Source: Escherichia coli (lineage in GTDB: Bacteria; Pseudomonadota; Gammaproteobacteria; Enterobacterales; Enterobacteriaceae). Taken from it: 64,000 bases of DNA. The notes beneath the pieces are model-generated. The model was not told the DNA's origin. It was given only the letters and a program-made list of their open reading frames with translations, and did not search any database. The stretch lies in the NCBI RefSeq assembly GCF_044324785.1, contig NZ_CP172127.1; one strand, written 5' to 3'. A program made the position numbers and the translations under genes. Below are positions 5,841 to 46,087 of this stretch, piece by piece; positions within the stretch are counted from its first letter, which is position 1; the number at the start of each line of letters is the position of its first letter.

Positions 5841-8474
5841 TTATTTGGGAAGCGCTGTTCCCCATTCACGCCACTCTTTCGGTTCACTTTCCTGCAACAG
5901 GAAGTGCTTGCCTTCCTGAGCTTTCGGTGCCAGCGGCGTACCCGGAGGCGTAGCGAAGGCGATGCCGCCACGGATAAACTGGTTAAAGGTGCCGGTTTTT
6001 ACTACGCCGCCCGTCAGACCAAAGTCCAGACTGTAACCCGATGCCAACCAGAAGACGGAATTGTTACGCACCAGGTGTTGATAGCGTTTACTGATGCGCA
6101 TCGCAATCATCACGCGATCTGACAATGTCCCCAGCGTCATTCCGGTAACCGTACCGACTTCCAGACCACGGAACAGCACAGGTGTACCGATACCTAACGA
6201 ACCGGCTTCCGGCGCTTCAACAATAATGCTTAAGCCATCCAGGTAACGCGAATCAGTTATGGTGGCCTCTTGTAATTCAAAGTCGCGGCGAGGATTGCCC
6301 CGGCCTGGTTCGACGTTGATATACGGCTGGAGGATAGTATCAAGATGCTCAACGCCAGCTGCCGAAATTTGCGGTGTGACCACTGAGAAGCGCGTACCAC
6401 CGCGAGCAAAGGTCTGGACATATTCCGGATAGAGCACCGCCTTTGCCTGTACTTCATTGCGCGCGGTAATCAGATCCAGCGTCTGGATTTGCCCGATATC
6501 AATACCGAGATAGCGAATTGGCATCCCGACCGCCAGTTTTCCGGCATCGAAAGCGTGAAGCGTAATCTGCCCGCCAACCGCACGGGCTGCTGTTTCGGAA
6601 GCATACAGAATACGCTTATCGCCTTTACGCTGACTGGCGCTGGCACCGCTGAGGTTATCGAAGCTAATGGCTCCCTTTAATGCTCTGGAGAGCGGGGATG
6701 CCTGTACGGTCAGGCCACTACCATTCAGCTGAACTTTCGCCCCGCCTTCTGCCCAGAACACGCTATTGCTGGTCAGAAGGTTGCGATACTCCGGCTTAAT
6801 ATGCAGATCGATATCAAACGCGTTAGCTCGCGGACGCACAGTAATAACTTCACCAACTTCAAATTTACGGTACAGCACTACCGATCCTGCCTGCACATCC
6901 GGCAGTGTCTCTGCACTCAAACTTACGGTTGTGGTGGGTAAATCGCTAAGGCTGTTCTCCAGCGCTTTTTCCAGATTGGCATACAGTGGATAGCTGGCTT
7001 TCATCTCGCCTTTATCGCCCGGCAGAATACGTATCCCGCCGTTAATCCATTCTGAGGCGCTGGCACCGAGAAACTCAACGCCATCCAGCCCCACCTTCAC
7101 GTCGACACGGCTGTTGACGACAAATTTGCTATCGCCTTTTACCAGTTCGCGATGCTGAGGCTCGATGGCGACGGTAAAGGTGACGCCTTTGCTGGTGAGT
7201 TTACGATCAATAACCTGGCCTACCTGCACGCCGTGAAGAATGAGCGGCTGACCAGCATCAATGCCGTAACTTTCTGGTGCTGTCAGGGTCAGTGTCAGAA
7301 CATCCGGCTCTTGTAGCAGGGCTTTTTCACCTGGCACAACAACGAACTCTTTGCGTGGCTCGCCATCGCCGGGCACCAACTCAAAGGTTTTTCCGGTCAG
7401 CAGGGCGCTGAGATTGGCATCGCTAAGGGATAATTTCGGATTACGTAATTCGATGCGGGTATTTTCACGAAGCAGGGTGACGACGCTGGGATCAACGGTC
7501 ATTTCTCCGGTGACTTTACCACCAGGATTTAAATCCAGTTTAGTCAGCTGTCCGACTTCCAGCCCCTGATACATTAACGGCGTCGAGTCGGCGGTTAATC
7601 CGGCCCCACTCGGCAGTTCCAGTTTTATTATTACGCCACGCTGGCTGTGGGCGAGATCTTCATACAGACCAAAGGTATCTTCCGCCTCGGCAGGTTTCGA
7701 CTCTTCAGGTGAATCGAAGGCAATCGCACCGTTAACCAGTGCCGCCAGACTTTCCAGTTTCACCTTCGCGCCACTGATACTGACGTTGGCATCAACGCCG
7801 GAAACGTTCCAGAAACGGCTACCTTTTTTCACCAGGTCGGTAAAACGCCGCTCGATCAGGACATCAATCACCACACCTTGCTTGTTGGGATTGATGGCAT
7901 AGTCGTAGACTTTTCCGACCGGGATCTTGCGGAAATAGACCAATGAACCGCTGTTCAGCGAACCGAGATCGGGGGCTTGCAGGTGGATCATCAAATCGCC
8001 ATTGTCCAGCCGATATTTCGGTTGGGTATCGAGTGCGACAAAGTGATCCTGCTCTTTACCTTTACCTGGCATCATGCCGATATAGTTACCACCGACGAGG
8101 GCGTCCAGCCCGGAGACACCTGCCAGCGAGGCCTTTGGCGTCACCAGCCAGAACTGTGTCTCTTCGCGCAGCGCATCTTTCATATCGGACTTGATGCTGA
8201 CCTTGACTTCAATCTTACGAAGATCGTCGCTCAGGCTGATATCCTGCACAGTTCCGACTTCAACGCCCTGATAACGAACAGGCGTACGGCCTGGAACAAT
8301 ACCATCCGCCGACATAAAGTCGATGGTGACGGTATTGCCCCGGTCCTGATAACTGTCCCAAATCAGCCAACCAGCAATCATTAGCGCGATGAACGGCAGC
8401 AGCCAGAAAGGTGAGATACGGCGTTTGTTTTTAATCTGCGCTTCAGTCGTCGAAGCGGGCGTTTCCTGACTCAT
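5841..8474 (-). CDS. letB: Lipophilic envelope-spanning tunnel protein LetB (YebT), multi-MCE domain
   Basis: Track ORF 5841..8516 (891 aa) trimmed to Met15 (MSQETPAST...) gives 877 aa; repeated MCE-like segments; overlaps letA by 32 nt. Confidence 0.9.
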
Positions 8475-9726
8475 GTGCATCCCAAAGTAAGCGGCTGTCC
8501 AGCCATTCCACAGCAAGAATAGTCAAAATTACCGCTGCGCCGAAATAAAACGCAGCCGGTCCCATAGTAAAAGCGAGGATCTGATCGCGATTAATCAGCG
8601 ACATGGTTAAAGATATGACAAACAGGTCGAGCATCGACCAGCGACCAATCCAGGTCACCATCCGCAGTAACAGAATGCGTGTGCGTAAACCTTGCTGGCA
8701 TTTAAAATGAATACTCAACAGTAAAGTGAACATGACGATCACTTTAGTAAACGGTACCAGAATACTGGCGATAAACACGATTCCCGCAACGGCAATGTTG
8801 CTACTTGCCAGCGACATAATTCCGGAAAGAATTGTATCTTCCTGCCGTCCTCCGTTCAGATAAATGATAGAAATAGGCAACAGGTTGGCAGGTAACAACA
8901 AAACGATTGACGCTAACAGCGCCGCCCAGCATTTTTGCAGACTATGACGGCGACGCAGGCGTAGCGGGATATGGCAACGCGGGCAGCGACCACGCTGATC
9001 AGGATAGCCGGTAAAATGGCACCCAAGACAGACACGGAGTTTCTCGTCCCTACGCGTAGCGGGGCGCTGCGGATAAAATCGCTCCCACAGTTCTTCGACA
9101 TTGAGATGTGACAACGTCACCGTCGTTAAAATCACCAACGCCACAAAAGAGAACAAGCCGACACCCGCCTGGATATGGGCATAATCCTGCACCTTTATAG
9201 AAGCAACGCCAATGCCGACCAGGTAGATATCGAGCATTACCCACTCTTTCAGTCGTTCAAGCATCAGCAGTACCGGACGTAAATTCATTCCCAGTCGGTT
9301 ACCAAACCATAAATAAGCTATGGAGGTCACCAGAATGAGGGGGGCACCGATAACGCAGAAAAAGACCATCGACCCCGTTATCGCATCGCCCTGTTTGGTC
9401 ATTTGCCAGATGCCTTGCATAACGTTGGCGTCAATACGAATGCCTAACAGCCAGATATGCAACAGCGGTTCGCCCCAGGCAAACGGCATAAGCAACAGCA
9501 TGGTGAAGGCCATTGCCGCCAGGCGCGTTAGCGACCAGTCGCGCCCGTCACGAATTTTTGCCTGACAGCGCGGACAATAGGCACTTTGATGAGAATTTAT
9601 CTCGGGCAGGCTAAACAGCATGTCACATTGCGGGCAACGTTGGTAATCACCACGCGGCAGTTCCTCACCGATAGCCCTCACTGTTATCTTTTTTGTCGGC
9701 GTAATTTGTGGTGTGTTAAGAGCCAT
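8443..9726 (-). CDS. letA: Inner membrane protein LetA (YebS), PqiA family
   Basis: 427-aa ORF with two CxxC...CxxC zinc-ribbon-like motifs each followed by hydrophobic segments; immediately upstream of and overlapping letB. Confidence 0.9.
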
Positions 9727-37991: not shown

Positions 37992-39119
37992 TTGAATTAC
38001 CAAATGATTACCACGGACGATGCGCTGGCTTCTTTGTGTGAAGCCGTCCGTGCCTTTCCGGCGATAGCCCTGGATACTGAATTTGTTCGTACGCGCACCT
38101 ATTACCCGCAACTGGGTCTAATTCAACTTTTTGATGGTGAGCATCTGGCGCTAATTGATCCTCTCGGGATCTCCGACTGGTCACCGCTGAAAGCGATCCT
38201 GCGCGATCCGTCCATCACAAAATTTCTCCATGCGGGCAGTGAAGATCTGGAAGTGTTCCTCAATGTCTTTGGCGAATTACCACAACCCTTGATTGACACG
38301 CAAATCCTTGCTGCCTTCTGCGGACGCCCGATGTCATGGGGTTTCGCTTCCATGGTGGAAGAGTATTCCGGCGTTACGCTGGACAAGAGTGAATCGCGCA
38401 CCGACTGGCTGGCCAGACCGCTGACCGAACGTCAGTGTGAATACGCAGCGGCGGATGTCTGGTATCTGTTACCGATCACCGCAAAGCTTATGGTAGAAAC
38501 GGAGGCCTCCGGCTGGCTACCTGCGGCGCTGGATGAATGCCGCCTGATGCAAATGCGTCGTCAGGAAGTCGTTGCACCGGAAGATGCCTGGCGTGATATT
38601 ACCAATGCCTGGCAGTTACGCACACGCCAACTGGCCTGTCTGCAACTGTTAGCCGACTGGCGACTGCGCAAGGCGCGGGAGCGCGATCTGGCGGTGAACT
38701 TTGTCGTGCGTGAAGAGCATTTGTGGTCGGTAGCGCGTTATATGCCGGGAAGTTTAGGCGAACTGGACAGCCTGGGCTTATCCGGTAGCGAAATCCGCTT
38801 TCACGGTAAAACGCTGCTGGCGCTGGTGGAAAAAGCGCAGACATTGCCGGAAGAGGCCTTACCGCAGCCGATGCTTAACCTGATGGACATGCCGGGTTAT
38901 CGTAAAGCGTTTAAAGCGATTAAGTCGTTGATTACTGACGTGAGCGAAACGCACAAGATCAGCGCCGAATTGCTGGCATCGCGTCGGCAAATCAACCAAC
39001 TGCTGAACTGGCACTGGAAACTGAAACCGCAGAACAATTTGCCGGAGCTGATTTCCGGCTGGCGTGGTGAGCTGATGGCGGAAGCATTACACAATTTATT
39101 GCAGGAATATCCGCAGTAA
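37992..39119 (+). CDS. rnd: Ribonuclease D
   Basis: 375-aa ORF with DEDDy 3'-5' exonuclease and HRDC regions; recognised as Rnd. Confidence 0.9.
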   Translation: MNYQMITTDDALASLCEAVRAFPAIALDTEFVRTRTYYPQLGLIQLFDGEHLALIDPLGISDWSPLKAILRDPSITKFLHAGSEDLEVFLNVFGELPQPLIDTQILAAFCGRPMSWGFASMVEEYSGVTLDKSESRTDWLARPLTERQCEYAAADVWYLLPITAKLMVETEASGWLPAALDECRLMQMRRQEVVAPEDAWRDITNAWQLRTRQLACLQLLADWRLRKARERDLAVNFVVREEHLWSVARYMPGSLGELDSLGLSGSEIRFHGKTLLALVEKAQTLPEEALPQPMLNLMDMPGYRKAFKAIKSLITDVSETHKISAELLASRRQINQLLNWHWKLKPQNNLPELISGWRGELMAEALHNLLQEYPQ

Positions 39120-39125
39120 AATCTT

Positions 39126-39168
39126 CCGAAGCCGGACTGGGCGCGCTCAGCGCCACATCCGGCTTCGG
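39126..39168. repeat. REP-like palindromic element between convergent rnd and yeaX
   Basis: ccgaagccgg ... ccggcttcgg 10-bp inverted repeat enclosing a GC-rich core; contains the CCGGATG-type REP signature (catccggc). Confidence 0.45.
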
Positions 39169-39172
39169 CAAA

Positions 39173-40138
39173 CTACAAATCCAACACCAGGCGTTTACCC
39201 TTCGCGCGCGAACAACAGATCAACATACTTTGCTGGCTGGCACGCTCTTCATCGCTAAAATACTGATCCCGATGGTCAGCTTCACCTTCCAGTATTGCCG
39301 TTTCGCAGGTTCCGCATACCCCTTCACGACATAAACATTCCACTTTCGCTGCTTTATTATTTTCAATAACCTGCAAAATAGTCATCTCTTCCGGCACCAC
39401 ATACTCTTTACCGGAACGGGCAAGCACCAGGGTAAATGCATCGCCGGTTTTGTCTTCAATCGCAAATTGTTCAAAGTGCAGCGTATCGGCGGCGATGTCC
39501 AGACGCGCAGCTTCACTTCTTACCGCCTCATTTAGCGCTTCGGGGCCACAGGTATAAACATGTGTGCCAGGTTCGATATCCGCCAATAATCGCGCTAATT
39601 CCAGTCGTGTTCCGGTTGATGAATGATGCAAATGGACTTTCTCAGCCTGCGGATGCTGGACTAGCTCATCACGAAATGCGCAACTTTCTGGATTTCGTGA
39701 GCAGTAATGTAACTGCCAGTCGACGTCGCTGTATTGCATCTCTGCCAGGTGCGACAGGAAAGGGGTGATACCAATGCCTCCCGCGATAAACAGATGCTTT
39801 CTGGCCGAGGGAATTAGCGCAAACAGGTTATTAGGCGTTGAAATCGTTAACCGATCGCCCACTTTTACCTGCTGATGCAAAAAGCGGGAACCGCCGCGCG
39901 AGTTTTCCTCCAGCCGAACGGCAATCTGATAACAAGAGGTGTCATGCGGCGAACTCAGTAGTGAATACGCATTGCTGTACTCGTTATCACCATCGCTCAT
40001 CTGCACAATGACGTGACTTCCTCCGGTAAACGCAGGTAATGGTTTGCCATCGGTTGCCACCAGCGTGAAGCGTTTCACCTGTTCGGTAAGCGGTTCAATT
40101 TGGCTCACCTGTACTTCAAACATTTGATAGTCTGACAT
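39173..40138 (-). CDS. yeaX: Carnitine monooxygenase reductase subunit YeaX (CntB); FNR-like reductase with C-terminal 2Fe-2S ferredoxin
   Basis: 321-aa ORF with C-terminal Cys cluster (CREGVCGTCE) typical of plant-type ferredoxin domains. Confidence 0.85.
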   Translation of the reverse strand: MSDYQMFEVQVSQIEPLTEQVKRFTLVATDGKPLPAFTGGSHVIVQMSDGDNEYSNAYSLLSSPHDTSCYQIAVRLEENSRGGSRFLHQQVKVGDRLTISTPNNLFALIPSARKHLFIAGGIGITPFLSHLAEMQYSDVDWQLHYCSRNPESCAFRDELVQHPQAEKVHLHHSSTGTRLELARLLADIEPGTHVYTCGPEALNEAVRSEAARLDIAADTLHFEQFAIEDKTGDAFTLVLARSGKEYVVPEEMTILQVIENNKAAKVECLCREGVCGTCETAILEGEADHRDQYFSDEERASQQSMLICCSRAKGKRLVLDL

Positions 40139-40193
40139 TGCTGTACTCCATCAAAAATCAGCCCAGCGGCGGAAAATACCGCCGCCGATGTCA

Positions 40194-41318
40194 TTAGTCC
40201 TTAAACACCTGCGCCAGCAGATTATGGAAATGGGCGATACCATGTTCGGAAATTCCGCTACCGCTACTGTCGGCCATGATGCGCCCCTGACCACGATAGC
40301 CACGCGATTTCAGCCCTTTCTGTACGCTTTCAACCAGACGTAAATCTTCCGGACGGAACACATCGCGATACCACTCAATCAGCGATTTTTGCTCGTCGGT
40401 TAACTCTTCATTGGTGAAGTAAATATCGTAGTTTTGCAGGGTAGTTTCAGAATCCACCGGGAATTCATAAATGACCGTCATCATCCCTTTGATCGGGGTG
40501 ACGTTCAGCATCGTGCACGGCCACAGCCAGAAACCGTGGAATGCCGCATCCGTGCCCTCTTCGAATTTGAAAGACTGTTCGGACGGTTTGGCGAAACCGT
40601 ACTGCAGCGTCCAGTTACCGTGCATGGTGTGCCAGTAACGATCAACCTGAACGGAGTCGGAGAAACCTGGATGCGCCGGACCACAGTGATAGCACTCGAG
40701 ATAGTTATCGACAATGTTCTTCCAGTTGGCAGGCGTGCGGGTGGTAAAGCGGGCCGCCAGTTTCAGGTCGTGGACTTCCGGGCAGGCTTCCAGCACTTTC
40801 GCGCCCAGACCGGGTAACTGATCTTCTACGCTGGTGGCGTTGGGGTCCATGTTGATGAAGACGAATCCGGCATATTCTTCCAGACGCACCGGAACCAGTT
40901 GCGCTTTGTCGCTATCGAAATTGGCGACGTTTTCGCAGTTACGTGCATGGGCCAGATTGCCATCGAGTTTGAATGCCCATGCGTGATACGGGCAGGTAAT
41001 CACATTTTTTGCTTTTCCTTCACCGCTCAACAACTGATGACCACGGTGCGGACACACGTTATAGAACGCGCGCAAAACCTTATCACGACCGCGTACCAGC
41101 ACGATGCTTTCGCCAATGATCTCACGCGTCACATAATCATTGGCATTAGCCAGTTCGCTGCTGTGAGCGACGCAAATCCAGCTTTTGGCGAAGACGTTCT
41201 CTTTTTCGTGTTCAAAGGCGTTCTGATCGGTATAAAAACGGGCAGGAATGGTCCACGCCTCTTGCGGGTTAGCGCAAAAATTTTCGGGTAGTACAAAGTC
41301 AGGGCTCAGATTGCTCAT
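40194..41318 (-). CDS. yeaW: Carnitine monooxygenase oxygenase subunit YeaW (CntA), Rieske-type
   Basis: Track ORF 40194..41438 trimmed to MSNLSPDFVLPENF... (374 aa); Rieske motif CPHRGHQ...CPYHAW present. Confidence 0.85.
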   Translation of the reverse strand: MSNLSPDFVLPENFCANPQEAWTIPARFYTDQNAFEHEKENVFAKSWICVAHSSELANANDYVTREIIGESIVLVRGRDKVLRAFYNVCPHRGHQLLSGEGKAKNVITCPYHAWAFKLDGNLAHARNCENVANFDSDKAQLVPVRLEEYAGFVFINMDPNATSVEDQLPGLGAKVLEACPEVHDLKLAARFTTRTPANWKNIVDNYLECYHCGPAHPGFSDSVQVDRYWHTMHGNWTLQYGFAKPSEQSFKFEEGTDAAFHGFWLWPCTMLNVTPIKGMMTVIYEFPVDSETTLQNYDIYFTNEELTDEQKSLIEWYRDVFRPEDLRLVESVQKGLKSRGYRGQGRIMADSSGSGISEHGIAHFHNLLAQVFKD

Positions 41319-41349
41319 AGGGTTACCTTTATCGTTAGGATGATGGCGC

Positions 41350-42960
41350 TCAGTTGTCGCCTTTGAATACGGTTCCCGCAGGGAGCACTGGTGTTTTTTC
41401 CAGGGCTTCAACCGGTGTCTGCGGGAGATAATGTTCAACTTGATGAGCCGGAATGTCGGCGTAATCCTGTTTCAGCCAGCGAATAAATCCGCCGACTTTC
41501 ACCAGTAAAATGACGAGGAAGGGAAGGGCTGTGAGCACGACGGTGGTTTTCATCGTTTCCAGCGAAGCACCGGTAAACAAGATGGAAAGCGGGATCAGAG
41601 TGATCACCACGCACCAGAAAAGACGCAGCCCACGGTCAGGATCTTCACCTTCCTGGAGATTACGCGTACTGGTCGCCGCCATGGTGTAGGCCACCGCATC
41701 CATATGCGAGGCAAGGAAAATAATCATCACGCCCAGGTATGCGGCGAGGAACAATTTACCGGCTGGCAACGACATCAGAACTTGCTGCACAGCTGTTTCA
41801 CCGCCCAGTGTTTCCAGCACCTGTGGGACGTTGATTACGCCATTGATAAACTGATGAATGGCATAGCTTTCCATTACGCCGAAGAAGAACCAGCAACCGA
41901 CGGTGCTGCCGAGGATCAGTCCCCAGATAACTTCTTTAATCTTATGACCGCGGGAAACGCGGGTGACAAACATTGCTACGCCAGGCGTGTATGAGATCCA
42001 CCACAGCCAGTAGAAAACGGTCCAGTTGCGGGTAAATGAACCATCGCCAAGCGGATCGGTGAATAAGCTCATTTGCAGGAAGTTTTGCGTGGTCAGGCCG
42101 ATGGCATTGATGATGCTGTTGGTAATAAATTCGGTTGGACCGACAATCAGCACCAGTAATGGCAGCAGGAACGCGCCCCAGCCAACCATTTTGCTCAGAC
42201 GTTGCAAACCGTTGTTGATACCAATCCATGAGCTTAGGCAAAAAATGCCGCCGGAAAGCAGGATCACAAATGCCTGCACGGTGAAGTTATCGGGTAAACC
42301 GGTCAGTGCGGAAAGTCCACGAGTAAAGGTTGCTGCGGTGACAACAAGGGAAATAGTCAGTGCGCCGACAGTGGCGATCAGGAACATCAAATCAACCAGT
42401 TTTCCCCATGGGCCTTGCGGGCGAACGCCGGTAATCGCGGCAATAATGCCGGAAAGACTCAGACCTTTGTTTTTCCGCACATGAAAGTGATAAGCCATGA
42501 TTAATGAGGCCAGCGTATAAGTTGCCCAGGCGCTGATGCCCCAGTGGAAGAAGGAGTAAGGGACGCTAAATTCGAGTGCCTGTTGTGAACGCGGTGCGAT
42601 ATTTAATCCAGGCGTTTGATAATAATAGGCCCATTCAGCAACCCCCCAATAAAGCGTAGAAGAACCTAAACCGGCACAAATAAACATAAACAGCCAGGAG
42701 AGCGTGCTGTATTCCGGTTTTCCTTCGCCAAGACGAATATTGCCGTATTTACTGGTGGCTAAATAAATCACCAGTCCCATTGCCAGCAAAACCAATACCT
42801 GTACGGCGGAACCTAACGTACGCGTAACAAAAGTGTATATTGCGTTGGCCGCGTCGGCCGATTGTTGTGGGAAAAGGCTTAATGCAGCTGCGATGAAAAG
42901 AATGGCCACCAGGCTGATGCTTATCAGCGGCACATCTTTTTTCTTAACATTGCTCATCAT
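41350..42960 (-). CDS. yeaV: BCCT-family transporter YeaV (probable carnitine/betaine-type carrier)
   Basis: 536-aa polytopic ORF; N-terminal region resembles CaiT/BetT-type BCCT carriers from the first Met, so the full ORF is kept; exact start uncertain. Confidence 0.8.
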
Positions 42961-43210
42961 GAGTCATCTCCTGGGCATAAAAGCCCGTCTCTGGCTTTTG
43001 CCAGTTGTAATTATTTGCAGGGTAATGAGTTGTATGTTGTGTTTAACAAATTGATTATTTGCATGTTACATAAATTAAACAATTAAGAATACGGAAAGCC
43101 ATAAAACACGAAACGGAAACAATAAAAGGTGAAATGACGCAGGTTATTAACTGCAAAGAACGAATAAAAAAACCGCGTCAGTGACGCGGTTCAAATAAAC
43201 TGGTTTGACC

Positions 43211-44296
43211 TTAACGCAAAATAATTTTGCAAATCGCGTCGGCAACCTGTGGCGTGGTGGCACTGCCTTTCATATCCGGTGTTTTCGGCCCGTGAGCAAT
43301 CACTTCTTCAATCGCTGCCAGAATACCGTTATGCGCTTGCTGGAAACGCTCATCGCCATTGCCGAGAAAATCGAGCATCATTGCACCGGCCCAAATTGTG
43401 GCAATAGGGTTAGCAATATTTTTCCCGTAGATATCCGGCGCGGAACCGTGAACAGGCTCGAAGAGCGACGGGAAAGTGCGTTCCGGATTCAGGTTGGCGG
43501 ATGGGGCAATGCCAATGGTGCCGGTGCAGGCCGGGCCAAGATCGGAAAGGATATCGCCAAACAAATTGGACGCCACCACCACATCGAAGCGTTCCGGCTG
43601 CATCACAAAACGCGCGCAGAGAATATCAATATGCTGCTTGTCCCAGCGGATCTCCGGGTAATTCTCGGCCATTGCTTCCACTCGCTCATCCCAGTACGGC
43701 ATGCTGATGGCTAAACCGTTTGATTTAGTGGCAGAGGTTAGCGTCTTACGTGGGCGGCTTTGCGCAAGTTCGAAGGCATAACGCAAAATGCGATCGACAC
43801 CACGACGCGTAAATACCGATTCCTGAATGACGACTTCATGCTCTGTACCTTCATTCACTCTACCGCCGAGCGAGGAATATTCGCCTTCGGTGTTTTCCCT
43901 GACCACGTAAAAATCGATGTCGCCAGGCTGTTTTCCCGCCAGCGGGCAGGGAACGCCAGGAAAGAGACGAACCGGGCGCAGGTTGACGTACTGGTCGAAT
44001 TCACGACGAAATTTCAGCAGCGAACCCCACAACGAAATATGGTCCGGAACGGTGTCCGGCCAGCCGACGGCACCAAAATAGATGGCGTCGAAACGGCTAA
44101 GTTGCTCATGCCAGTCGTCCGGCATCATTTTACCGTGATGGCTGTAATACTCGCAGCTCGCCCACTCCATTTGCTCAAAACTCAAGGCGAAGCCCCAGCG
44201 CTCAGCGGCAGCCTGTAACACGCGAATCCCTTCAGGAAGGACTTCTTTGCCAATCCCGTCTCCCGGGATCGCAGCAATACGCATCGTTTTCATCAT
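43211..44296 (-). CDS. dmlA: D-malate dehydrogenase (decarboxylating) DmlA
   Basis: 361-aa isocitrate/isopropylmalate dehydrogenase-family ORF MMKTMRIAAIPGDGIGKEV... Confidence 0.9.
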   Translation of the reverse strand: MMKTMRIAAIPGDGIGKEVLPEGIRVLQAAAERWGFALSFEQMEWASCEYYSHHGKMMPDDWHEQLSRFDAIYFGAVGWPDTVPDHISLWGSLLKFRREFDQYVNLRPVRLFPGVPCPLAGKQPGDIDFYVVRENTEGEYSSLGGRVNEGTEHEVVIQESVFTRRGVDRILRYAFELAQSRPRKTLTSATKSNGLAISMPYWDERVEAMAENYPEIRWDKQHIDILCARFVMQPERFDVVVASNLFGDILSDLGPACTGTIGIAPSANLNPERTFPSLFEPVHGSAPDIYGKNIANPIATIWAGAMMLDFLGNGDERFQQAHNGILAAIEEVIAHGPKTPDMKGSATTPQVADAICKIILR

Positions 44297-44398
44297 TGGG
44301 TTCTCACTTCCTGACCATCAAAATTGACAACATCACCATCCTATAATTGACTGAAAAGGAATTAATCCCCGTAACTGGTGAAACATAAAACACGAATC

Positions 44399-45322
44399 AT
44401 GAATAATTTACCGCTGCTGAACGATTTGCGCGTCTTTATGCTGGTGGCTCGCCGGGCTGGTTTTGCCGCCGTGGCGGAAGAACTGGGCGTTTCACCGGCG
44501 TTCGTCAGCAAGCGCATCGCCTTGCTGGAGCAAACGCTAAACGTGGTGTTGTTACACCGCACCACCCGCCGCGTCACCATTACCGAAGAAGGAGAGCGGA
44601 TTTATGAATGGGCGCAGCGGATTTTGCAGGATGTCGGTCAGATGATGGACGAACTTTCTGACGTGCGTCAGGTGCCACAGGGGATGCTGCGTATTATCAG
44701 CAGCTTTGGTTTTGGACGACAGGTGGTGGCTCCGGCGTTATCAGCGCTGGCGAAGGCGTATCCGCAACTGGAATTACGTTTTGATGTGGAAGACCGGCTG
44801 GTCGATTTGGTCAATGAAGGTGTCGATCTCGATATTCGCATTGGCGATGACATCGCCCCTAATTTAATCGCCCGCAAACTGGCGACCAATTACCGCATTC
44901 TCTGCGCGTCGCCGGAATTTATTGCGCAACATGGCACGCCGAAACATTTAACCGATCTTTCTGCATTGCCGTGCCTGGTCATTAAAGAGCGCGATCATCC
45001 TTTTGGTGTCTGGCAATTACGCAATAAAGAAGGCCACCATGCGATTAAAGTCACCGGCCCACTGTCGTCTAATCATGGAGAAATTGTCCATCAGTGGTGT
45101 CTCGATGGGCAGGGGATTGCTCTGCGTTCCTGGTGGGATGTTAGCGAAAACATTGCCAGTGGTCATTTAGTGCAAGTGCTACCGGAATATTACCAGCCAG
45201 CGAACGTCTGGGCCGTTTATGTTTCAAGGCTGGCGACGTCAGCGAAAGTGCGGATAACGGTAGAATTTTTACGCCAGTATTTTGCCGAGCACTACCCGAA
45301 TTTTTCACTGGAGCATGCCTGA
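44399..45322 (+). CDS. dmlR: LysR-type transcriptional regulator DmlR
   Basis: Track ORF 44378..45322 trimmed to MNNLPLLNDLRVFMLVARRAGFAAVAEELGVSPAFVSKRI... (307 aa); divergent from dmlA. Confidence 0.85.
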   Translation: MNNLPLLNDLRVFMLVARRAGFAAVAEELGVSPAFVSKRIALLEQTLNVVLLHRTTRRVTITEEGERIYEWAQRILQDVGQMMDELSDVRQVPQGMLRIISSFGFGRQVVAPALSALAKAYPQLELRFDVEDRLVDLVNEGVDLDIRIGDDIAPNLIARKLATNYRILCASPEFIAQHGTPKHLTDLSALPCLVIKERDHPFGVWQLRNKEGHHAIKVTGPLSSNHGEIVHQWCLDGQGIALRSWWDVSENIASGHLVQVLPEYYQPANVWAVYVSRLATSAKVRITVEFLRQYFAEHYPNFSLEHA

Positions 45323-45379
45323 TTAATGATTCAATTATCGGGTTGATATCGGGTTAAAACCTGATTTTCTCCTTTCTAA

Positions 45380-46087
<708 letters not shown>

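Follow-up and report, generated by a model that had tools for sequence, protein, structure and literature searches.

A 64,000-nucleotide stretch of Escherichia coli DNA (NCBI RefSeq assembly GCF_044324785.1, contig NZ_CP172127.1; the whole stretch is called the window below) contains at positions 39173-45322 five intact genes, of which yeaX, yeaW, yeaV and dmlA lie on the minus strand and dmlR is divergent (Table 1). The region is very probably the intact form of the E. coli dmlR-dmlA and yeaV-yeaW-yeaX locus, orthologous to the carnitine operon of Acinetobacter but without its hyd and msadh genes, i.e. a known trimethylamine (TMA) module attached to the remains of a downstream pathway, a complete route not being demonstrated. 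YeaW and YeaX are already established as a carnitine monooxygenase, and the pathway idea linking the cluster to D-malate has been published (Piskol et al. 2024), the finding as such thus being already known. Modest additions to this picture are a polymorphism with three alleles within E. coli and a covarying hairpin in front of yeaX.

The oxygenase and reductase genes yeaW and yeaX

YeaW matched the crystallised CntA of Acinetobacter baumannii (6y8j) with E 9e-197 and 73% identity, and Pfam identified the Rieske (E 1.6e-23) and Ring_hydroxyl_A domains. The residues checked in YeaW and YeaX were those listed in PMC7948474 and PMC9508527. All cofactor and substrate residues of CntA are kept in YeaW: the Rieske [2Fe-2S] ligands C89-P-H91 ... 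C109-P-Y-H112 (CntA Cys86/His88/Cys106/His109), the mononuclear-iron ligands H211, H216 and D325 (His208/His213/Asp323), the bridging residue E208 (Glu205), and the pocket residues Y206, Y228, F260, N272, Y297, Y317 and F321, which are invariant in the alignment (Tyr203, Tyr225, Phe258, Asn270, Tyr295, Tyr315 and Phe319). The protein is identical to YeaW of K-12, the genes differing by 14 nucleotides and no amino acids.

YeaX matched the structure of phthalate dioxygenase reductase (PDR; 2pia, E 5e-55). Its [2Fe-2S] ligands C270, C275, C278 and C308 are kept, as are the flavin mononucleotide (FMN) residues E77 and S84, and none of the seven amino-acid differences from K-12 YeaX is at a ligand position. 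The identities to the carnitine cluster proteins of Acinetobacter were measured against the A. nosocomialis orthologues and were 50% for YeaX (CntB), 54% for YeaV (carnitine transporter), 72% for DmlA (malate dehydrogenase, MDH) and 46% for DmlR (CarR). In the NCBIfam search none of YeaW, YeaX and DmlR passed any model, and the identities of these three rest on matches to the Protein Data Bank, residue checks, synteny and RefSeq names.

The biochemistry of the E. coli YeaW/YeaX carnitine monooxygenase is established: TMA release from L-carnitine was shown for the identical K-12-type YeaW protein, and the activity of E. coli CntA is high with both L-carnitine and gamma-butyrobetaine (PMC9508527). 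Structures of CntA are available with carnitine and with gamma-butyrobetaine bound (PMC7948474), and the products of carnitine cleavage are TMA and malic semialdehyde (PMC11353897). An earlier reading of the window, made from its letters only (the sequence-only reading), had noticed the CxH...CxxH motif of YeaW and the ferredoxin cysteine cluster of YeaX and proposed a two-component, TMA-releasing carnitine monooxygenase; all three points agree with the ligands, the CntA match and the published biochemistry. For these or nearly identical proteins it has been shown that electrons from NADH pass through the FMN and the [2Fe-2S] cluster of YeaX to trimeric YeaW, which with O2 cleaves L-carnitine and gamma-butyrobetaine about equally well, yielding TMA and an aldehyde.

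YeaW has the Rieske and catalytic fold, the bridging Glu and a PDR-type reductase in common with the group V Rieske oxygenases acting on quaternary amines (GbcA/BmoA glycine betaine monooxygenase, Stc2 stachydrine demethylase). However, it is only distantly similar to them (154 bits with the GbcA model against a cut-off of 670; Stc2 at about E 1e-31), and it is not a member of these families.

Transporter, D-malate dehydrogenase and regulator

YeaV scored 1030 bits with the NCBIfam equivalog model PRK09950 (cut-off 647), covering positions 1-536 of 536 and including the first transmembrane helix (TM1), the centre of which is near residue 20. It also matched the CaiT and DddT structures, and its N-terminus M(M/L)SNVKKKD... 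is kept in Escherichia, Citrobacter, Shimwellia and Xenorhabdus. YeaV would bring the quaternary amine into the cell; indirect evidence for transport of carnitine is the identity to the Acinetobacter transporter and the loss of carnitine upon overexpression (PMC10971958). In E. whittamii Sa2BVA5 (locus L006, about 8198-8965) the sole long yeaV open reading frame (ORF) begins near YeaV residue 203, and the gene may be a pseudogene there.

DmlA passed the curated cut-off of NCBIfam TIGR02089 (564 against 470.4 bits) and matched structure 3flk with E 8e-195, confirming the decarboxylating D-malate dehydrogenase named by the sequence-only reading; dmlA differs from that of K-12 by 15 nucleotides and one amino acid. 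The best NCBIfam match of DmlR, the TtdR model, scored under its cut-off. As CarR is in Acinetobacter, dmlR is arranged divergently, and by synteny DmlR appears to be the orthologue of CarR. DmlA and DmlR of K-12 have a documented role in D-malate use: DmlA oxidatively decarboxylates D-malate to pyruvate, and DmlR, which activates DmlA, responds to D-malate and tartrate, whereas Acinetobacter CarR responds to carnitine. Sequence comparison indicates strong purifying selection on yeaW, yeaV and dmlA.

ORF calling reproduced the gene positions of the sequence-only reading, with yeaV, yeaW and yeaX on one strand; the intergenic gaps are 31 bp (yeaV-yeaW), 55 bp (yeaW-yeaX) and 250 bp (dmlA-yeaV). 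The mechanical yeaW ORF begins at TTG 41438, and the true start, ATG 41318, was set by the CntA alignment and the K-12 annotation. Also the divergent dmlR was present as described, although the start given for it, 44378, is an in-frame GTG upstream of the annotated ATG at 44399.

By megablast the locus was matched in 5425 of the 5426 complete E. coli genomes, with the same gene names in RefSeq (BCCT transporter YeaV, carnitine monooxygenase YeaW/YeaX, DmlA, DmlR). The K-12 counterpart is b1799-b1803 (dmlR, dmlA, yeaV, yeaW, yeaX), to which the region is inverted in orientation and 98.3-99.0% identical in nucleotides. The window belongs to E. coli proper: identity was 99.1% over 9.2 kb to E. 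coli strain N3, and at most about 92% to the Escherichia species representatives compared (E. sp. E1V33, E. whittamii, E. albertii and the divergent "E. coli" E69).

Synteny across genera and the missing msadh

Work on the Acinetobacter carnitine cluster reportedly includes that of Zhu (2014). Further studies are those of Breisch (2019, 2022) and Piskol (2024). In A. baumannii the order is carR, divergent from mdh-bcct(aci01347)-hyd-cntA-msadh-cntB, and the E. coli locus likewise has this gene order, the divergent LysR gene and a LysR-mdh spacer of about 100 bp. It differs in lacking hyd and msadh, and in the distance between mdh and bcct, which is 20-51 bp within one operon in Acinetobacter and 250 bp with a terminator and a separate control region in E. 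coli. The E. coli locus thus has none of msadh, hyd and the single mdh-to-cntB operon of a complete Acinetobacter-type cluster.

A scan with a YeaW/CntA alignment, using one genome per species, gave 80 loci, in which ORFs were called and compared with the window and Acinetobacter proteins by blastp; the synteny comparison spans about 60 of them. The arrangement of a LysR gene divergent from D-malate dehydrogenase-BCCT-(hyd)-cntA-(msadh)-cntB recurred in four Escherichia species, about 14 Citrobacter and related genomes and six Xenorhabdus, and also in Shimwellia, about 35 Acinetobacter, Psychrobacter and one Neisseriaceae metagenome-assembled genome (MAG). Because it recurs in at least six genera, dmlR and dmlA appear to be ancestral, integral members of the carnitine cluster rather than neighbours by chance, and the five genes would derive from one catabolic unit.

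The gene for the malic semialdehyde dehydrogenase (MSA-DH) separates cntA from cntB in Acinetobacter and Psychrobacter, as well as in most Citrobacter and four of the six Xenorhabdus, and was missing from all four Escherichia species, some Citrobacter, the other two Xenorhabdus and Shimwellia. In the clusters without msadh the excision is clean, the hairpin and T-run in front of yeaX being retained. No MSA-DH (tblastn) or Hyd homologue was found in the whole window, and the 55 bp between yeaW and yeaX hold no aldehyde dehydrogenase gene. The enterobacterial clusters that do contain msadh (those of Citrobacter sp. R56, C. youngae and Xenorhabdus khoisanae among others) share with E. coli the layout of divergent dmlR and dmlA followed by yeaV-yeaW ... 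yeaX, and they also have the dmlA terminator, the blocks upstream of yeaV and the hairpin before yeaX. Unlike Escherichia, they carry between yeaW and yeaX an MSA-DH homologue of 62-64% identity with Asn184.

In A. baumannii the MSA-DH of the cluster specifically makes D-malate, and its MDH, the homologue of DmlA, decarboxylates D-malate to pyruvate; the E. coli cluster was described in the same study as an orthologue without msadh and hyd, and GabD (62% identity) was pointed to (Piskol et al. 2024; PMC11353897). GabD of E. coli keeps the MSA-DH residues R166, E256, R284, C290 and S447, and its identity to each MSA-DH clade from the clusters is 62-65%, matching the identity among the clades themselves. 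Judged by these residues GabD would be the best candidate, and a plausible stand-in for MSA-DH on malic semialdehyde.

The sequence-only reading had suggested a longer route from carnitine to central metabolism that includes dmlA. Ancestry supports it, with at least six genera sharing the arrangement, and in A. baumannii the route is proven (PMC11353897). For E. coli the suggestion fared less well: msadh is absent from the Escherichia clusters and from the 64 kb, a terminator splits dmlA from yeaV, and carnitine does not support growth of the strains BL21, B and K-12 (PMC11353897). As the step from malic semialdehyde to D-malate has no dedicated gene in Escherichia, carnitine would be converted to pyruvate only if a housekeeping aldehyde dehydrogenase substitutes. 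The route is not shown to operate in E. coli: the cluster lacks the enzyme that would join its two halves, these halves probably form separate transcription units, and control of yeaVWX by DmlR is hypothetical.

Transcription units and control elements

The dmlA terminator is identical in sequence throughout Escherichia and Citrobacter, and the 250 bp upstream of yeaV hold blocks conserved between the two genera. Because of this conserved terminator and the conserved upstream region of its own that yeaV has, dmlA and yeaVWX probably form two separate transcription units in Enterobacterales, the ancestral unit having been split. If so, reverse transcription PCR over the dmlA-yeaV junction is expected to be largely negative.

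A scan for the sigma-70 consensus upstream of yeaV found no promoter at the scan threshold. The candidate yeaV promoter has eight of the 12 consensus positions and lies within a conserved AT-rich block with TGTTA-like repeats spaced at 11 bp. Pattern scans for CRP and ArcA in the same region gave weak matches, including ArcA-like repeats, which are low-confidence hints; yeaV is among the CRP targets of a genomic SELEX study (PMC3105977). The two leader hairpins are directly 5' of the Shine-Dalgarno sequence (SD) AGGAG (42972-42968), and the GGGC/GCCC stem (42973-42986) is invariant in Citrobacter while its loop varies.

The 13-mer TTCGTGTTTTATG occurs exactly at 43112-43100, upstream of yeaV, and at 44396-44384, in the dmlR-dmlA spacer, a length reached in two of 1000 shuffles. 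Its GTGTTTTAT core is at the same position in both control regions in Escherichia, Citrobacter, RIT691 and Shimwellia. The 13-mer is a candidate shared operator and the sole sequence hint of common control of dmlA and yeaV. It may instead serve the expression of dmlR, since in the dmlR-dmlA spacer the 13-mer adjoins the start codon of dmlR and even Acinetobacter retains the core there.

The dmlR-dmlA control region is strongly conserved in Enterobacterales, and within the 64 kb an exact match to the TAATT-N11-AATTA dyad is found only there. This LysR-type dyad was not accepted as a sign that yeaV has a DmlR box: a copy with one mismatch (43008-43028) is not conserved in Citrobacter, and with at most two mismatches the dyad occurs at chance frequency (37 found, 36 expected). 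The literature searched contained no link between DmlR and yeaV or yeaVWX. In a comparison of six genera the LysR-mdh spacer was 100-104 bp long in five, including Acinetobacter and Psychrobacter, and 127 bp in the Neisseriaceae MAG. The range of 100-104 bp holds for Escherichia, Citrobacter, Shimwellia, Xenorhabdus, Acinetobacter and Psychrobacter, although the sequences of the different orders have little identity.

The hairpin in front of yeaX has a folding energy of -19.5 kcal/mol (z -3.8), and when Escherichia, Citrobacter and RIT691 are compared, six of its ten pairs have changed in a compensatory manner. Its position relative to yeaX is kept in Escherichia and Citrobacter whether msadh is present or absent, and it may set the ratio of oxygenase to reductase. 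An Rfam search of 38900-45500 gave nothing meaningful, the single hit (E 0.13) being on the dmlA terminator.

Table 1. Genes, control elements and the polymorphic segment of the carnitine locus (positions in the window).
Feature	Position	Strand	Basis and details
yeaX	39173..40138	-	ORF calling; Pfam FAD_binding_6, NAD_binding_1, Fer2; 2pia match; ligand check; 50% identity to CntB
Terminator-like hairpin and T-run in the yeaW-yeaX gap, just ahead of the yeaX SD	40163..40188	-	Terminator scan
yeaW (cntA), carnitine monooxygenase Rieske-type oxygenase subunit, 374 aa	40194..41318	-	6y8j match, residues, Pfam
yeaV, full-length BCCT-family transporter, 536 aa	41350..42960	-	NCBIfam PRK09950
224-bp segment absent in K-12-type strains	42833..43056		Alignment of window and K-12
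Two short yeaV-leader hairpins, CTGGC-AAAA-GCCAG and GGGC-N6-GCCC	42973..43004	-	Folding, 121 nt, z -2.6
Candidate yeaV promoter	43054..43082	-	Predicted only; -35 TTGTTT (43082-43077), 17-bp spacer, -10 AATAAT (43059-43054)
Conserved upstream block TTTCACCTTTTATTGTTTCCGTTTCGTGTTTTATG	43100..43135	-	Contains 13-mer TTCGTGTTTTATG (43112-43100)
dmlA intrinsic terminator, 10-bp stem, 3-nt loop, T7	43170..43192	-	Terminator scan; -15.6 kcal/mol, z -3.9
dmlA, decarboxylating D-malate/tartrate/3-isopropylmalate dehydrogenase, 361 aa	43211..44296	-	NCBIfam TIGR02089, structure 3flk
dmlR-dmlA divergent control region, 102 bp	44297..44398		13-mer (44396-44384), TAATT-N11-AATTA dyad (44344-44364), repeated GTCAATT motif
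dmlR, LysR-type regulator, 307 aa	44399..45322	+	Pfam HTH_1 and LysR_substrate, synteny

Three alleles of the cluster in E. coli

The complete E. coli genomes were divided among three alleles: about 54% have the intact form (the window, O157:H7 Sakai), about 27% a 224-bp deletion, and about 20% have lost the cluster. The 224-bp segment, present in 2930 of the 5426 genomes, reaches from yeaV codons 1-43, which encode TM1, through the SD and the 5' leader into the candidate -10. The exact K-12 junction was found in 1439 of them, including MG1655, DH5a, MC4100, C41(DE3) of the BL21 lineage, and C122. K-12 has lost the native yeaV start with its SD and leader and a portion of the candidate -10, and the annotated yeaV of 481 amino acids begins there at a TTG within TM2; the NCBI annotation pipeline PGAP calls the K-12-type yeaV a pseudogene with a missing N-terminus. 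An insertion in the window strain was rejected as the origin of the difference: the full N-terminus and the upstream blocks are present also in E. albertii, other Escherichia and Citrobacter, and because they are shared the difference is a deletion in K-12. Slippage between two TTTGTTA copies was likewise rejected, as the K-12 junction, with a microhomology of 1 bp, does not fit it.

About 1060 further genomes, including the B2 uropathogen CFT073, lack 39197-43775 and 43949-45154 of the window. In this B2-type scar yeaX, yeaW, yeaV and most of dmlA and dmlR are gone; still present are a dmlA remnant of 173 bp and the final 168 bp of dmlR. The remnant (window 43776-43948, compared with 2708-2879 of locus L003) is 92.5% identical to the intact sequence and the flanks about 98%, which suggests an old deletion with later decay of the remnant. 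In the literature searched no mention of the three-allele polymorphism was found.

Several observations weigh against the favoured reading of the region. Growth on carnitine is demonstrated in Acinetobacter but in no E. coli strain; BL21, B and K-12 did not grow on it, and a BL21 extract had no activity (PMC11353897). One metabolomics screen found broad effects of YeaV, including carnitine depletion upon its overexpression (PMC10971958). GabD has Ser where all cluster MSA-DHs carry Asn184. In about 46% of the complete E. coli genomes the cluster is damaged or deleted, which suggests that selection on it is weak or niche-specific. The carnitine-negative strains BL21, B and K-12 come from lineages with the 224-bp deletion in their allele, which could explain their negative growth and activity.

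Function of the cluster in Escherichia

It is possible, though only tentatively held, that the adjacency of the two modules is purely historical. In that case dmlR-dmlA would serve D-malate and tartrate, DmlA being a generalist, and yeaVWX would stand alone, either trimming the intracellular pools of quaternary amines or decaying. The separate transcription units, the loss of msadh, and the deletion of the yeaV 5' end in about 27% and of the whole cluster in about 20% of the genomes all point in this direction, as does the generally known role of DmlA and DmlR in D-malate use in K-12, where yeaV is crippled. Piskol et al. also found no substantial transcription of cntA in public expression data and suggested a role in carnitine homeostasis (PMC11353897). 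Such a separation is difficult to reconcile with the strong purifying selection indicated for yeaW, yeaV and dmlA and with the regulatory blocks of yeaV that are conserved between genera. Moreover, in a published time course of Sakai O157:H7, which has the intact allele, yeaV (log2 2.06) and yeaW (log2 2.43) rose more than 4-fold at glucose exhaustion, so that the intact allele is transcribed, and the B2 scar takes out both modules, so that they were lost together.

The opposite view, that the five genes of intact-allele strains make up a functioning route from carnitine to pyruvate, an unlinked aldehyde dehydrogenase filling the missing step and DmlR co-regulating dmlA and yeaVWX on carnitine or D-malate, is rather unlikely. 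The whole module is kept in six genera, the B2 lineage lost dmlRA together with yeaVWX, and GabD is a plausible substitute. The negative growth tests were made in deletion-allele lineages. For the proposed co-regulation speak the 13-bp element, which dmlA and yeaV have in common in their control regions and which is kept at either site, and the carnitine-dependent binding of A. baumannii CarR to the intergenic region (PMC11353897). However, msadh is gone from every Escherichia species and a conserved terminator stands between dmlA and yeaV. Several points also speak against DmlR control: the 13-mer, adjoining the dmlR start and with its core present in Acinetobacter, may serve dmlR expression, the yeaV-side dyad is not conserved in Citrobacter, and the literature searched offered no DmlR-yeaV link.

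An equally doubtful explanation is that the substrate in Escherichia is not carnitine but gamma-butyrobetaine, the end product of the anaerobic cai pathway. The products would be TMA and, by chemical reasoning, succinic semialdehyde, which GabD or Sad would convert to succinate; msadh and dmlA would then be unneeded, and the loss of msadh would be explained. This fits the high activity of E. coli CntA on gamma-butyrobetaine as well as on L-carnitine (PMC9508527), the binding of both in the same CntA pocket, the residues of which are all kept in YeaW (PMC7948474), and the absence of msadh from all Escherichia with GabD present. It does not account for dmlA and dmlR, which are still tightly linked to yeaVWX and conserved beside them in the species without msadh, and the msadh-bearing Citrobacter should meet gamma-butyrobetaine too. 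The literature searched yielded neither growth nor expression data for gamma-butyrobetaine.

Implications for trimethylamine production

TMA derived from carnitine feeds the formation of trimethylamine N-oxide in the host, which is linked to cardiovascular risk. Nearly all cntA sequences in human gut surveys come from E. coli (PMC5433236). In about 27% of the complete genomes cntA follows a crippled transporter and promoter region, so that TMA production is poorly predicted by cntA presence alone. The three alleles would give a simple and testable reason for the missing activity and growth of the laboratory strains tested in PMC11353897.

A more far-reaching proposal, which as a whole seems improbable, is that K-12, B/BL21 and C are natural mutants of the cluster and the reports of no expression, activity or growth are strain artefacts. 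The intact-allele strains (about 54%) would then express yeaVWX under carbon limitation and form TMA aerobically from carnitine or gamma-butyrobetaine, and the cluster-less B2 strains would be unable to do so. If this were true, cntA-based estimates of gut TMA would need allele typing.

Clusters of deviating composition

Citrobacter braakii ATCC 51113 has two cntA clusters in one genome (L016 and L019). One is without msadh and its YeaW is 92% identical; the other is more divergent, with msadh present, a YeaW of 88% identity and a shortened dmlR ORF. In Aquitalea pelogenes (L056) and a Curvibacter MAG (L061) there is no D-malate dehydrogenase and the LysR gene directly faces bcct. The locus of Achromobacter piechaudii (L058), also without D-malate dehydrogenase, consists of bcct-cntA-cntB only.

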